Origin: Gammaproteobacteria bacterium
Lineage (GTDB): Bacteria; Pseudomonadota; Gammaproteobacteria; Steroidobacterales; Woeseiaceae
DNA length: 64,000 bases
Direction: 5' to 3'
Assembly (NCBI GenBank): GCA_009937605.1
Contig: JAACFG010000001.1
Span: 9,527-73,526 of the forward strand
Below, in pieces: positions 53,183-56,662 of the stretch. Position 1 is the stretch's first letter; each line of letters begins with the position of its first letter. Both the position numbers and the translations under genes were made by a program. Below the pieces are notes generated by a model. It was not told the origin of the DNA, made no database searches, and saw only the letters and a program-made list of their open reading frames with translations.

Positions 53183-53722
53183 ATGAGCTCGGAAGCCAAC
53201 AACCTGGCATTTGAACGGCTCGTGCAGCCGCACTTCGACCGGCTGTACCGGCTCGCCTTTCGGCTGACCGGACGCAAGGCCGAGGCCGAGGACCTGTTCC
53301 AGGAACTCCTTATCAAGGCCTACGGCAAACTCGACGATCTCGTCGCCATTGACGAGCCTGGCTCCTGGTTGTCCAGGATTATGTACAACCTGTTCATCGA
53401 CGAGCGGCGCCGCTTTGCCCGGCAGCGACTGCACACGGTGGAAGAAGGCTACCTGCCCGGCGACGGCCTCGAAGGCTTTGCCGGCACCGAAGACCCGGTT
53501 CGTGACCACCAGCGACTCGAGAAGCTCAAACAGCTCGACCAGGCCCTCGCGCAACTCAGCGACGAGCACCGGATTATTGTTCTATTGCACGATACCGAGG
53601 GCTATAAACTCGAAGAAATTCATAAACTTATTGATATTCCTTTGGGTACTGTTAAATCCCGGCTGCACCGCGCCCGCGCTCGACTGCGCGAAATTCTAAC
53701 GACGAGTGGAACCTTTTCCTGA
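53183..53722 (+). CDS. ECF-type RNA polymerase sigma-70 family factor
   Basis: Region 2 (FERLVQPHFDRLYRLAFRLTGRKAEAEDLFQELLIKAY) and region 4 HTH (GYKLEEIHKLIDIPLGTVKSRLHRARARL). 179 aa. Confidence 0.85.
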   Translation: MSSEANNLAFERLVQPHFDRLYRLAFRLTGRKAEAEDLFQELLIKAYGKLDDLVAIDEPGSWLSRIMYNLFIDERRRFARQRLHTVEEGYLPGDGLEGFAGTEDPVRDHQRLEKLKQLDQALAQLSDEHRIIVLLHDTEGYKLEEIHKLIDIPLGTVKSRLHRARARLREILTTSGTFS

Positions 53723-53756
53723 GCCCTTTCGTGTAAGGATCAGGCAGGATAAGACT

Positions 53757-54293
53757 ATGCACACAAGCGACATCAGCAAAGAGGACCAGGAGGTCCTGGA
53801 ACTGTTAAAGGATTACCCGATGGCTGAAGCAACCGCAGGTTTCTATGATCAGGCACTGGCCCGCGCCACCCACGAAGGGACGCGTCGCCAGCGCAATAGC
53901 TGGGTCATGGCCGGGTTCGGATCTGCAATCGCCGCGGGTCTCGTCCTGTGGCTGGTCGGCGGCTTCTTCCTGACCACGCCCAATCTGCCGGAACCTGACG
54001 CGAGCATTCCGGGTATCGCGATGACGCTCGAAGAGCCGCGCACGATCAACATGATGTTTGCTTCGGAAACGGCGCTGGAGGGAGCGACCCTGACAGTTAC
54101 GCTCCCCGACGGCATCGAGCTGGCCGGCTTCCCGGGGCAGCGCGAGATCACCTGGGAAACGAGCCTCGTCGAAGGCAAGAATTATTTACCGCTCGAGCTC
54201 ATTGCACTGACACCGGTTGGTGGCGAAGTGCTCGCGCGCCTTGAACATGACAACCGTGACCGGACTTTCCGGCTACGTATAGAAGTGAGCTAA
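53757..54293 (+). CDS. Putative single-pass anti-sigma factor (non-ZAS)
   Basis: Immediately downstream of the ECF sigma gene. A short cytoplasmic N-terminus, a TM segment (VMAGFGSAIAAGLVLWLVGGFFL) and a periplasmic domain of about 110 aa. No HxxxCxxC motif. The call rests on context only. Confidence 0.55.
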   Translation: MHTSDISKEDQEVLELLKDYPMAEATAGFYDQALARATHEGTRRQRNSWVMAGFGSAIAAGLVLWLVGGFFLTTPNLPEPDASIPGIAMTLEEPRTINMMFASETALEGATLTVTLPDGIELAGFPGQREITWETSLVEGKNYLPLELIALTPVGGEVLARLEHDNRDRTFRLRIEVS

Positions 54294-54305
54294 CGGAGTA
54301 GGTCA

Positions 54306-54899
54306 ATGAAACAGCTGAATATATTTATCGCCACCCTGGCGCTGACGGTACTGGCGTTCGCGCCGGCGGTCGTGCGCGCCGACGAGGACATGGACGACCT
54401 CGAAGTCACGATGATGGTTCTCGATGACGTGAGCGATTTCGATGAGAGTTTCGCCGAAATGGACGGTCCTGATGACGACGACGTCCGCGATGAGGACTGG
54501 GAAGACGAGGAAGACCACGACGAGTCGGACGAAGAACGTGAAGACGAGTCTGACGAGGAGCGTGACGAAGAGTCCGATGAGGAGCGTGAGGACGAGCGCG
54601 AAGACGAGCGTGACGAAGAGTCCGATGAGGAGCGTGAGGACGAGCGCGAAGAAGAACGTGAGCTTGAGGACGAGCACGAAGAAGAGTTCGAAGACGAGTT
54701 CGAGAATGACGAGCTCGACGAAGAAGAGGAAATGGAACACGAAGATGACTTCGAAGACGGTGAAGACATCGACGAGGACGAGTTCGACGAGGATGACGAA
54801 GAGGAAGACGACGAATTCGACGAGGATGACGAGGATGACGAAGAAGACGAAATGGACGACGACGATTCCGAGGAAGAAGAAGAGGACGACGTCGAATAA
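54306..54899 (+). CDS. Secreted or periplasmic hyper-acidic (poly-Asp/Glu) repeat protein
   Basis: GGAG RBS and a Sec signal peptide MKQLNIFIATLALTVLAFAPAVVRA|DED. The mature part is about 172 aa, and by my hand count about 120 of those are D or E. There is no K, C, Y or Q. A terminator follows the gene. Confidence 0.75.
   Translation: MKQLNIFIATLALTVLAFAPAVVRADEDMDDLEVTMMVLDDVSDFDESFAEMDGPDDDDVRDEDWEDEEDHDESDEEREDESDEERDEESDEEREDEREDERDEESDEEREDEREEERELEDEHEEEFEDEFENDELDEEEEMEHEDDFEDGEDIDEDEFDEDDEEEDDEFDEDDEDDEEDEMDDDDSEEEEEDDVE
54564..54659 (+). repeat. 48-bp tandem duplication inside the acidic protein gene
   Basis: gacgaagagtccgatgaggagcgtgaggacgagcgcgaa occurs at 54564-54602 and again at 54612-54650. 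This encodes DEESDEEREDERE twice. More degenerate (D/E)nR periodicity flanks the repeat. Confidence 0.85.
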
Positions 54900-54945
54900 T
54901 CATCCTGGCATCGGCTAGAGGGCTGCCGAAGCCAGAATTGAGCCG

Positions 54946-54983
54946 AATCCCCCCGTTTGTGACGCATTCGGGGGGATTTTTTT
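54946..54983 (+). terminator. Rho-independent terminator after the acidic protein gene
   Basis: aatcccccc…ggggggatt (9-bp stem) followed by a run of 7 T. Confidence 0.75.
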
Positions 54984-55057
54984 GCGCCACGTCATAGTTT
55001 CAATTCTCAGAAAGCCCATAATTGTGCATCTGACATAACCCGCCAAGTCTGAGTTGC

Positions 55058-56662
55058 ATGCGAAACAGGACATTCACAAGCACGCTATTCATCGCAGTCG
55101 CCGCCATCGCATGGCTGGCGCCGGTGCTGCCCGCAAATGCGATGACCGCCGAGCAGTATTTCGCAGACGCCAATCGACTGTTCAAGGACGACCTCTACTG
55201 GGCCGCGCTGCTCCGCTACGAACAGGCCGGCGAAGCTGGGCTCGATACGCCCCTGCTGCACTACAACACGGGCATCGCACACTATCGCGCCGATCAGCAT
55301 ATCCGTGCACGCGAGTCGTTCCTGCGGGCAGTCGAAGATCCGAGCTTACGGGTCGCGGCTCAATACAATCTCGGCCTGAATGCCTACGCACTTGGCGAGA
55401 CCGAGGAAGCGCTACGCTGGTTCCGCCTGGTGCGCGACCAGAACGAAAACCAGGCACTTCAATATTTCGCGGTGATCGCCATCTCGAGGATTCGGGTGGA
55501 GCAGGAAGAGCCGACCGAGTTTGAAAAGCGCGCGGTCAAACGCGAGAAGGAAAAGGAGTTCAGCGAACTCGAATTGACAGCGTCCATCGGCTACGGCCAC
55601 GACAGCAATGTCTTCCGTTCGCCAAACGAGCCGTACATCGATTTTTCGAACCCCAACCAGCCACTCGTGACGCCTGTCGTCCAAAGCGGTGCATTTATTC
55701 CGGTAACACTTGGCGCCAAGTACCTGGTTAACACACTGCCTTTCGAGGGATTCTACGGCGAGTACATCCTGACCGGCCGTTACTACCCGGACAAGGCGCT
55801 CGAGAATGGCAACGAGTACCTGCACCAGTTGAGCTTCGGCAGCGAGTACACCCGCCGGGAAGAGAATCGCGAACGTCACGTGCAAAGCGCGTTCAGGGTC
55901 GCGCAGCACAATGAGGTTTACTACGACCCGGACGACGGTGGCTCCCGCATTATCGGTGGCGAGGCTATCGACGACCGAATGAACTACATCCGCTATGGAC
56001 CGCAGTTCTTTGCCCGGCAATCAGGCGAGAAGTTCTCGATGGGCATCGGTATCAAAGGCGAGCTCTGGGATTACGAGGAGACGGCCGCCGCCCAGTACGA
56101 TCATCAATATTTCCGGAGCCGCGTATTTGGTCAATACGAGTTCACCCGCTCATCGTTACTGCGACTCACGGCCGAGTACTACACCCGCCGCTTCAACGAT
56201 CGGCCCTCATACGACCTGGACGGGCAGCAGCGCATTGGCAACCCGAACATTCGCTATGACTACGCCGCGCTCGCCCTGCGATACCGACACCGCTTTACCG
56301 ACGACATGTGGGCTGGCATCAATGCAAGGCGCACACAGCGGACCGACCGGTATGCTGGTTACTACGACTACACGCGGGACAGCCTCGGCATTGAGTATCA
56401 CTGGTCCCCAAGCTACCGATTCGACTTCGAGGTCGGCGCTGTCTACCAGCTCTACGATTTCCCCAATGCGTTCGCGTTTCACGAGCCGACCCAGGGCCAG
56501 AGAACCCAGGAAGGACTGCTCGCCAGGGTCCTCGCGTCCTACCGTTTCAAGCGTGATTGGTATTTGTTCCTCTCGGTGCGGCACAAGGAAACGGTGTCCA
56601 ACGACATCCGCATCCAGTATGACCGAACGCAGTACGCTATTGGCGTACGGTGGGACCGCTAA
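55058..56662 (+). CDS. Outer-membrane protein: N-terminal TPR region + C-terminal beta-barrel (Slam/DUF560-like or PgaA/BcsC-like architecture)
   Basis: Signal peptide …VLPANA. TPR-like helices (YWAALLRYEQAGEAG…HYNTGIAHYRAD…QYNLGLNAYALGETEEALRWF). From ELELTASIGYGHDSNVF onward there are alternating aromatic-rich strands with many Y, R and D residues. 534 aa. Confidence 0.7.
   Translation: MRNRTFTSTLFIAVAAIAWLAPVLPANAMTAEQYFADANRLFKDDLYWAALLRYEQAGEAGLDTPLLHYNTGIAHYRADQHIRARESFLRAVEDPSLRVAAQYNLGLNAYALGETEEALRWFRLVRDQNENQALQYFAVIAISRIRVEQEEPTEFEKRAVKREKEKEFSELELTASIGYGHDSNVFRSPNEPYIDFSNPNQPLVTPVVQSGAFIPVTLGAKYLVNTLPFEGFYGEYILTGRYYPDKALENGNEYLHQLSFGSEYTRREENRERHVQSAFRVAQHNEVYYDPDDGGSRIIGGEAIDDRMNYIRYGPQFFARQSGEKFSMGIGIKGELWDYEETAAAQYDHQYFRSRVFGQYEFTRSSLLRLTAEYYTRRFNDRPSYDLDGQQRIGNPNIRYDYAALALRYRHRFTDDMWAGINARRTQRTDRYAGYYDYTRDSLGIEYHWSPSYRFDFEVGAVYQLYDFPNAFAFHEPTQGQRTQEGLLARVLASYRFKRDWYLFLSVRHKETVSNDIRIQYDRTQYAIGVRWDR

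Follow-up and report, generated by a model that had tools for sequence, protein, structure and literature searches.

A conserved four-gene envelope module encoding an ECF sigma factor, an anti-sigma homologue, a polyacidic secreted protein and a TPR-barrel outer-membrane protein in Woeseiaceae-type Gammaproteobacteria

The window, i.e. the whole stretch of 64,000 nucleotides (nt) analysed here from contig JAACFG010000001.1 of a Woeseiaceae gammaproteobacterium, contains four consecutive genes for an extracytoplasmic function (ECF) sigma factor, an anti-sigma homologue, a polyacidic secreted protein and an outer-membrane protein (OMP) in which tetratricopeptide repeats (TPR) precede a beta-barrel. 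These four genes constitute one envelope unit, which is uncharacterised. The best reading, with a probability of roughly 40%, is that the TPR-barrel handles the periplasmic polyacidic polypeptide at the outer membrane and that the sigma pair controls the process. The four-gene set is carried by marine-sediment bacteria across unrelated genome contexts, and Woeseiaceae-type Gammaproteobacteria are named as its source in many public metagenome-assembled genomes. The genes and the two elements between them are as follows (lengths in amino acids, aa).

53183-53722, + strand: ECF sigma factor gene, 179 aa
53757-54293, + strand: anti-sigma homologue gene, 178 aa
54306-54899, + strand: polyacidic secreted protein gene, 197 aa
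54945-54983, + strand: Rho-independent terminator, hairpin at 54945-54979 and T-run to 54983
54982-55039, + strand: promoter-like region of the OMP gene, a conserved non-coding block
55058-56662, + strand: OMP gene, 534 aa

The four + strand open reading frames (ORFs) were confirmed at these positions, separated by 34, 12 and 158 nt. The ORF coordinates and the hairpin fold agree with an earlier, sequence-only reading of this DNA with respect to the four co-directional genes, the gap sizes and the terminator. The interpretation offered by that reading held in part: a conserved module, a TPR-barrel architecture and the lack of a prior description were borne out, whereas membership of the OMP in the Slam, PgaA or BcsC families found no clear support.

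Conservation of the neighbourhood, set beforehand as a refutation test, was surveyed across 87 related loci, with gene counts covering those loci that contain enough upstream DNA. The acidic-protein gene was present in 69/69, the anti-sigma gene in 58/58 and the sigma gene in 52/52 such loci, with gene order and strand identical in 58/58. Most of the related loci are syntenic, the module lying between ctaB/cox and uvrD-trkA, and by themselves these loci are no proof of a functional link because the whole region is co-conserved. The order also holds, however, in at least three non-syntenic contexts, down to approximately 30% OMP identity. In L004 the module is flanked by genes for an FKBP and a TonB-dependent receptor (the latter ~1.7 kb downstream on the opposite strand) and the OMP is 35% identical to that of the window, while in L007 the flanks encode a 2-hydroxyacid dehydrogenase and GlnRS and the OMP is 31% identical. 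The L090 contig is short and breaks off inside the anti-sigma gene; the last three genes are visible and the OMP gene (30% identity) starts 30 nt after the acidic-protein gene. The module of L096 is flanked by methyltransferase and EamA genes, and with ~85 nt of contig beyond the OMP gene the visible flank is the upstream one; this locus appears to lack the sigma gene because an antisense mis-call masks the sigma ORF, the public call stretching a minus-strand methyltransferase ORF (4992-6473) over the + strand sigma gene at 5874-6473. In all four of these loci the third gene encodes a signal peptide, the same N-terminal motif and a D/E-rich tail. The same genes occur between different flanks, and adjacency therefore reflects function and not synteny alone. 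Furthermore, the window and L001 contain an iorAB insertion between ctaB and the sigma gene that L002, L003 and L094 lack, and the adjoining module is intact in spite of it.

The product of the third gene (197 aa) contains 62% aspartate plus glutamate (D+E); its mature form carries a net charge of -114, with 123 D/E among 172 residues. A type I signal peptide occupies residues 1-25 (54306-54380), with cleavage at …AVVRA/DED, and the protein contains no cysteine, no lipobox and no family match in Pfam or NCBIfam. A conserved N-terminal module (N-module) of ~45 residues (aa ~26-70) is followed by a D/E-rich repeat tail that includes three 48-nt tandem repeats (54517-54661). The N-module carries the motif L-[DE]-V-T-M-x-V-L-D-D … E-M-x-G-P-D-D … D-W, kept across 67 distinct sequences, and it is conserved in the orthologues (n=71), the lengths of which range from 147 to 234 aa and the D+E contents from 39 to 62%. 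The protein is probably a disordered polyanion bearing a Sec signal. The signal peptide, the composition, the orthologues in 69/69 loci and the conserved N-module indicate that the ORF is not a chance low-complexity frame, and the combination of a fixed N-module with a tail of freely varying length and repeats fits a docking signal joined to a bulk polyanion. An apparent fusion of the acidic-protein and OMP ORFs in L030/L031 was rejected, as a stop codon is present. Long ORFs also occur on the - strand and in alternative + frames over the acidic-protein gene (54290-54990), including Ser-rich (225 aa), Arg/Pro-rich (194 aa) and Lys/Thr-rich (158 aa) frames; these overlapping ORFs, as well as an AT-skew peak (+0.195) at 54-56 kb, are attributable to the GAN-rich repeats of the acidic-protein gene.

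The OMP comprises a signal peptide (aa 1-28), a TPR domain (aa ~31-165; 55148-55552) and a 16-stranded barrel (aa 169-533; 55562-56656). An AlphaFold2 (AF2) model with a mean predicted local distance difference test (pLDDT) score of 81.9 placed eight helices over residues 31-165, followed by 16 strands (DSSP), and its first barrel strand, SELELTASIGYGHD (169-182), is where the sequence-only reading had begun the barrel. The TPR plus barrel architecture was likewise upheld by the AF2 model and by a whole-chain Foldseek search against the PDB, in which BcsC (9b8a) ranked first (E 3e-10, template modelling (TM) score 0.33) and the top 24 matches also included PelBC, a second BcsC entry and PgaA. 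Family membership was another matter. The window OMP has Pfam matches to TPR only (TPR_2, 5.7e-8), and the hidden Markov model searches that the sequence-only reading had proposed yielded no PF04575/DUF560, PgaA, BcsC or YaiO match at E<=1. No PF24575 TPR_Slam match was detected in Pfam at E<=1, and TIGR03939 (PgaA) and PRK11447 (BcsC) were absent from the NCBIfam matches at the same threshold. Searching PDB sequences with the OMP retrieved designed TPR proteins only, and searching them with a 91-member family profile gave 0 matches.

The barrel domain alone was searched by HMMER against 1.84e9 cluster representatives, and its family is small, with 260 representatives at E<=1e-3 among the 1.84 billion. 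Two architectures are found: TPR plus barrel proteins of ~530-550 aa and barrel-only proteins of ~390-415 aa. A metagenome scan with a closer OMP alignment recovered close relatives only (57-81% identity). To establish family affinities, 91 members of the barrel family were scanned one by one, with the following matches.

EpsL (TIGR03014): 25/91 members, best E 2e-12
BBP2_2 (PF10082): 16/91 members, best E 8e-11
OMP_b-brl: 14/91 members, best E 6.5e-06
MtrB_PioB: 5/91 members, best E 2.8e-06
SlipAM/DUF560 (PF04575): 3/91 members, best E 4e-6

The window OMP itself has no PF10082 or TIGR03014 match in Pfam or NCBIfam, and in P0435, P0247, P0109 and P0447 the BBP2_2 match covers only the last ~50-90 profile positions, with 3/4 above the Pfam cut-off. 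Over its full length, family member P0427 shares 52% identity with the window OMP, and it scores 26.2 bits against PF04575 (gathering score 22). Pfam DUF560 membership within the barrel family is a threshold effect, and a remote DUF560 relationship of the window OMP is plausible because so close a relative passes the cut-off. On these profile matches, the OMP family appears to be a small unnamed one within the outer-membrane-barrel superfamily, with weak ties to EpsL/BBP2_2 and DUF560, and the OMP itself is no demonstrable member of Slam, PgaA or BcsC. A strand-phase heuristic predicted many charged lumen-facing residues with a K/R excess (24 vs 14 in the window OMP; family means 22-25 vs 18-19), which is weak evidence because the excess is modest and the heuristic uses neither coordinates nor a porin control. 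A distant TPR-barrel relative (28% identical by tblastn) was observed in L005 (61-2646), where it is followed by a gene that resembles GT4-type glycosyltransferases in sequence; the gene upstream of it on this short contig ends in an acidic tail (…DDLVEGELDDNE).

Barrel-only relatives, 26% identical to the window barrel (E 8e-38), constitute a sister clade with a context of its own. In 3/3 readable loci the barrel gene ends an operon that also encodes a RloB-like protein, an alpha-L-glutamate-ligase-like protein and a ~627-aa TPR protein, in that order. The operons are located as follows.

L089, 1-5005: sister-clade operon
L091, 3562-9221: sister-clade operon
L092, 3563-9194: sister-clade operon

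The RloB-like product is an inactive-transglutaminase/seven-transmembrane protein (NF052267, 7e-52), and the alpha-L-glutamate-ligase-like (RloC-like) product is an ATP-grasp protein (TIGR02291, 1e-74 and 2e-80). The RloA protease was absent from all three operons. In a fourth locus, L006, a large TPR protein is encoded directly upstream of the barrel, after which the contig ends. In L091 a two-component system lies directly upstream of the operon. In P. aeruginosa, secreted RloA proteases cleave polyglutamate at runs of at least 8 Glu, loss of rloB or rloC suppresses the protease-null phenotype, and the rlo genes affect hypo-osmotic tolerance (PMC11957051). The specificity of RloA and the suppression by rloB or rloC loss therefore point to an envelope product of polyglutamate type. 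Both barrel branches thus adjoin a candidate source of polyacidic polypeptide and a TPR partner, fused or separate, and the sister-clade context is the strongest new support for the acidic protein as cargo.

The product of the first gene matched Sigma70_r2 (3e-14), Sigma70_r4_2 (4e-14) and Sigma70_ECF in Pfam, with region 3 absent, and scored 87.6 bits against TIGR02937 (cut-off 42.9), while no equivalog cut-off was reached in the NCBIfam scan. Its closest solved relatives are SigE/SigH of M. tuberculosis and SigW of B. subtilis (E 1e-25 to 1e-19). It is an ECF (group 4) sigma factor. For the second gene an alternative GTG start at 53706 would lengthen the ORF; ATG 53757 was taken as the start because more than 100 homologues are 178 aa long. 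This 178-aa product has no Pfam or NCBIfam match and is laid out as a cytoplasmic segment (1-49), a transmembrane helix (~50-72) and a beta-rich, acidic periplasmic domain (73-178; net charge -8, pI 4.5), with the hydrophobic stretch WVMAGFGSAIAAGLVLWLVGGFFL at residues 49-72 and a C-terminal domain of ~100 aa. Orthologues in L003, L004 and L096 carry zf-HC2 and an HxxxCxxC motif at the N-terminus (PF13490, zf-HC2, at 1.8e-7 in L003), and those of L003 and L004 are 43-59% identical to the window copy. The window product is without the N-terminal ~33 residues that contain HxxxCxxC, and its alignment starts at the helix after the zinc finger (…LLKDYPM…GFYDQAL.RA.H). The short 178-aa form is the norm in Woeseiaceae-type sequences (78-92% conserved, n>100). 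Since the alignment to zf-HC2 orthologues begins past the zinc finger, the second gene product is classed as a single-pass homologue of zf-HC2 (zinc-binding anti-sigma, ZAS) anti-sigma factors whose zinc-finger helices have been lost. It shares the ZAS class I features of adjoining the sigma gene on its 3' side, one transmembrane helix and an extracytoplasmic C-terminal domain. What had been called an anti-sigma factor is therefore a homologue with a single transmembrane helix encoded 34 nt after the sigma gene, but the window copy is without the zinc-finger part. Its AF2 model was of low confidence (pLDDT 46) and for that reason was left out of the fold search.

The terminator that closes the sigma/anti-sigma/acidic-protein transcription unit consists of an 11-bp G+C-rich stem and a run of seven T, with a folding energy of -26.5 kcal/mol (z -3.3; 0/200 shuffles fold as well). 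Related loci retain the hairpin, with a compensatory stem change from C-G to A-T; a simple terminator scan missed it because of its long loop. Abutting the terminator is the conserved block upstream of the OMP gene, consisting of TTGCGCCACGTCATAGTTT (54982-55000), a spacer of 13 nt, the 8-mer GCCCATAA (55014-55021; type GCCG[AGT]TA, GCCsrTA) and, 8-10 nt after the 8-mer, CTGACATAAC (55030-55039). The exact -35-side block ACGTCATAGTTT was present in 63/75 distinct intergenic regions, with the 13-nt spacer in 51/63. In 0.8 Mb of related loci the motif was counted 55 times, each time at this same position and strand; the window has 1 site, compared with 0.04 expected. Conservation of the block exceeds that of the neighbouring proteins. 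The motif is still present at 47-55% OMP identity (L003, L093, L094, L096) and is absent from L004 and L007. No credible Rfam match was found in 52800-57000. The element appears promoter-like but is unlike sigma70 promoters. Its closest resemblance is to the sigma28 consensus, from which it differs by 2 nt of additional spacer, and no canonical sigma28 site occurs in the window. A SigH/SigR-like reading, GGATT-N18-GTT overlapping the terminator, is possible. No ECF-type promoter common to the sigma gene and the OMP gene was found. In 31/51 loci the sigma gene is preceded by a TAnA[CA]T hexamer, 5-11 nt before the start codon, and 14 of these 31 regions have TTG[CAT] at -35 spacing, as in sigma70-like promoters; many loci carry TTGC-N17-TAnACT near the start codon. 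These patterns would fit a constitutive sigma operon combined with alternative-sigma control of the OMP.

The sequence-only reading knew of no such described system, and a search of the literature on ECF sigma factors with TPR and acidic proteins and on cargo of type 11 secretion systems (T11SS) likewise turned up no account of the four-gene combination; it is also missing from surveys of T11SS cargo and of the genomic contexts of ECF sigma factors. The module shares with Slam/T11SS a Sec-dependent candidate cargo encoded beside the OMP, an N-terminal periplasmic TPR arm with a C-terminal barrel of similar overall size, and a remote sequence affinity through P0427 and the 3/91 PF04575-matching family members. 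Unlike Slam, the window OMP lacks a PF04575 or TPR_Slam match and is predicted to have 16 strands, whereas the Slam barrel has 14, and an ECF sigma/anti-sigma pair belongs to the unit. T11SS cargo is defined by a C-terminal 8-strand barrel (PMC12282271), whereas the acidic protein contains no lipobox, no domain match and no such barrel (TbpBBD/lipoprotein C).

As in BcsC, PgaA, PelB and AlgK/AlgE, a TPR scaffold is joined to or paired with a barrel of 16-18 strands, and the barrel family includes fused and split (TPR protein plus barrel) forms, comparable to PgaA/BcsC versus AlgK/AlgE. In the known synthase-dependent exopolysaccharide porins the barrel passes an unfolded polymer. The OMP differs from these in having no sequence-model match to PgaA or BcsC, a far shorter TPR arm (~135 aa), no adjoining synthase or glycosyltransferase genes (its neighbours being sigma, anti-sigma, acidic protein, uvrD and trkA) and, as candidate substrate, a ribosomally made protein instead of a polysaccharide. 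The sequence-only reading had cited PgaA and BcsC as polyanion exporters, which is wrong by general knowledge: poly-N-acetylglucosamine (PNAG) is cationic or neutral and cellulose is neutral, the polyanion exporter being AlgE. The best sequence affinities of the barrel family are with the EpsL/BBP2_2 (TIGR03014, PF10082) and TIGR03016 PEP-CTERM barrels, although the window OMP is itself unmatched and no exosortase, XrtB or PEP-CTERM locus was present in the loci read. The RloABC system of P. aeruginosa also places a polyacidic polypeptide in the envelope, and the sister-clade barrel directly follows RloB/RloC-like genes; however, the window module contains no RloA, RloB or RloC gene and its polyanion is gene-encoded, while the sister-clade operons have a TPR protein and barrel in place of RloA.

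With respect to regulation, an operon that combines a sigma factor, a single-pass anti-sigma factor and a third protein, periplasmic or secreted, is a feature shared with RpoE-RseA-RseB, CnrYXH and HasI-HasS-HasR-HasA. An OMP gene next to an ECF pair has a precedent in SigX-CfrX-CmpX-OprF (PMC7826278). Unlike in these loci, the third protein is no homologue of RseB/MucB or CnrX (no family match in Pfam or NCBIfam), the OMP is not a TonB-dependent transducer, and the window anti-sigma lacks the zinc-finger helices. In its presumed working, the module would be most like the TPR-barrel polymer exporters and Slam/T11SS, in which a Sec-delivered neighbour is handed to a TPR-bearing barrel.

According to the favoured reading, the acidic protein would enter the periplasm through Sec, where the TPR arm of the OMP would serve as the docking site for its ~45-residue N-module. 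The tail, an unfolded polyanion, would then pass through, or stay in, a water-filled and heavily charged barrel, so that the protein would be exported or displayed on the surface, and the sigma/anti-sigma pair would couple OMP expression to the state of the process, e.g. the periplasmic polyanion load. In the sister clade, a polyacidic polypeptide would be moved across the outer membrane by the barrel together with the separate TPR protein. This reading is based on the linkage of the four genes across contexts, the conserved N-module of the acidic protein beside its variable tail, the TPR plus barrel architecture that is that of outer-membrane polymer exporters, the association of the sister clade with RloB/RloC-like genes, the lumen-facing K/R excess from the strand-phase heuristic, and the OMP gene's own conserved non-sigma70-like promoter region. 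A more general proposal, that the barrel family in its fused and split forms is a dedicated outer-membrane conduit for polyacidic polypeptides, with an ECF-controlled branch for gene-encoded poly-D/E and a branch for the RloB/RloC product, is put forward tentatively, as less likely than not.

Several observations weigh against the OMP handling the acidic protein. The link between the two is drawn from gene neighbourhood, and the acidic-protein gene belongs to the sigma/anti-sigma unit and not with the OMP, which is the usual co-regulator position in ECF operons. The region upstream of the sigma gene contains no copy of the OMP promoter element, and the element could not be assigned to the ECF sigma factor. 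No energy source for translocation is evident. The TPR domain of the OMP is itself acidic overall (net -5), the lumen K/R excess is modest (+4 to +10, from a sequence heuristic with neither coordinates nor a porin control), and Foldseek TM scores of ~0.3 were obtained for polymer exporters and ordinary porins alike and so do not separate them. For the sister clade the context comes from 3-4 loci, and a chemical identity for the RloBC product is still lacking (PMC11957051).

A rival reading is that the module is one of signalling, with the acidic protein a periplasmic co-regulator or sensor of the anti-sigma, like RseB/MucB or CnrX, and the OMP not its translocon. The polyanionic tail might then report divalent or polyvalent cations or cationic peptides, and the OMP would be either the chief target of the regulon or the point in the outer membrane at which a cell-surface-signalling relay to the periplasmic domain of the anti-sigma receives its input. 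Co-transcription of the acidic-protein gene with sigma and anti-sigma (12-nt gap, terminator after) in the usual co-regulator position is consistent with such a role, as are the anti-sigma periplasmic domain, which at 78-92% identity is the most conserved part of the module, the separate conserved OMP promoter, as expected of a regulon target, and the OMP-containing ECF locus SigX-CfrX-CmpX-OprF (PMC7826278). However, Pfam and NCBIfam reveal no resemblance of the acidic protein to RseB, CnrX or other sensor families, a -114 repeat tail of freely varying length would be an unusual sensor, the periplasmic domain of the anti-sigma is acidic as well (net -8, pI 4.5) and would not attract the tail, and the position of the sister clade beside RloBC-type genes and a TPR protein is left unexplained. 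Signalling is the main rival account, somewhat less probable than the favoured reading. Clearly less probable is a fixed periplasmic polyanion under ECF control, a protein counterpart of the anionic osmoregulated periplasmic glucans (Donnan, osmotic and cation buffering), with the OMP a channel or structural protein of the regulon that makes no direct contact. The extreme charge density, variable length and low-complexity tail would suit this role, and polyglutamate-linked rlo genes affect hypo-osmotic tolerance in P. aeruginosa (PMC11957051); against it, the conserved N-module implies a specific partner and strict pairing with a TPR-bearing OMP is unneeded for a bulk solute. Moreover, Donnan effects are small at the ionic strength of seawater, in which Woeseiaceae-type organisms live.

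Two further explanations separate the OMP from the acidic protein altogether. The OMP could be an ordinary Slam or type 11 secretion protein whose true cargo (a lipoprotein, or a protein like hemophilin, that ends in an 8-strand barrel) is encoded elsewhere, the acidic protein being unrelated. This would be in keeping with an N-terminal TPR and C-terminal barrel, with P0427 passing PF04575 (26.2 vs 22 bits) and with the 3/91 matching members, yet it is very improbable given that the window OMP has neither a PF04575 nor a TPR_Slam match at E<=1, that 16 strands and not 14 are predicted, that BBP2_2 (16/91) and EpsL (25/91) matches outnumber those to SlipAM, that no TonB-dependent receptor or T11SS-type cargo lies beside the OMP in Woeseiaceae-type loci (flanks ctaB/cox and uvrD/trkA), and that the acidic protein is an invariant neighbour. 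Finally, the four genes might be neighbours through the synteny of the ctaB … uvrD-trkA region alone, with no functional link, as the module always lies between ctaB/cox and uvrD-trkA in Woeseiaceae-type loci. This is contradicted by L004 and L007, where the four genes have other flanks, and by L090 for the last three genes, and the order is undisturbed in the window and L001 despite the iorAB insertion next to it; coincidental neighbourhood is regarded as highly unlikely.

With regard to neighbouring genes, uvrD (722 aa) and trkA (458 aa) lie downstream of the module in the window (56700-60255), and the downstream uvrD-trkA-trkH-dctQM synteny is kept down to 47-55% OMP identity (L003, L093, L094). 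Upstream, on the - strand at 50136-52852, are genes for a two-subunit molybdopterin oxidoreductase of the IorAB/aldehyde-oxidase type, comprising a MoCoBD large and a [2Fe-2S] small subunit.

The module is likely a core envelope function of the Woeseiaceae-type group, because every related locus read carries it. With a TPR-barrel partner dedicated to it, a secreted protein with a net charge of approximately -114 would be a novel type of polyanion on the surface or outside the cell, with possible consequences for cation binding, mineral or particle adhesion and envelope electrostatics. Should the conduit proposal be true for both barrel branches, the family would represent a new, hitherto unrecognised secretion route by which proteinaceous polyanions are placed on or outside Gram-negative cells, and the RloBC pathway would gain an outer-membrane end point. 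The sister-clade link provides a testable candidate for the fate of the RloBC product, left open in PMC11957051. Furthermore, the barrel family lies between DUF560 and BBP2_2/EpsL and may connect protein-secreting and polymer-secreting barrel families.

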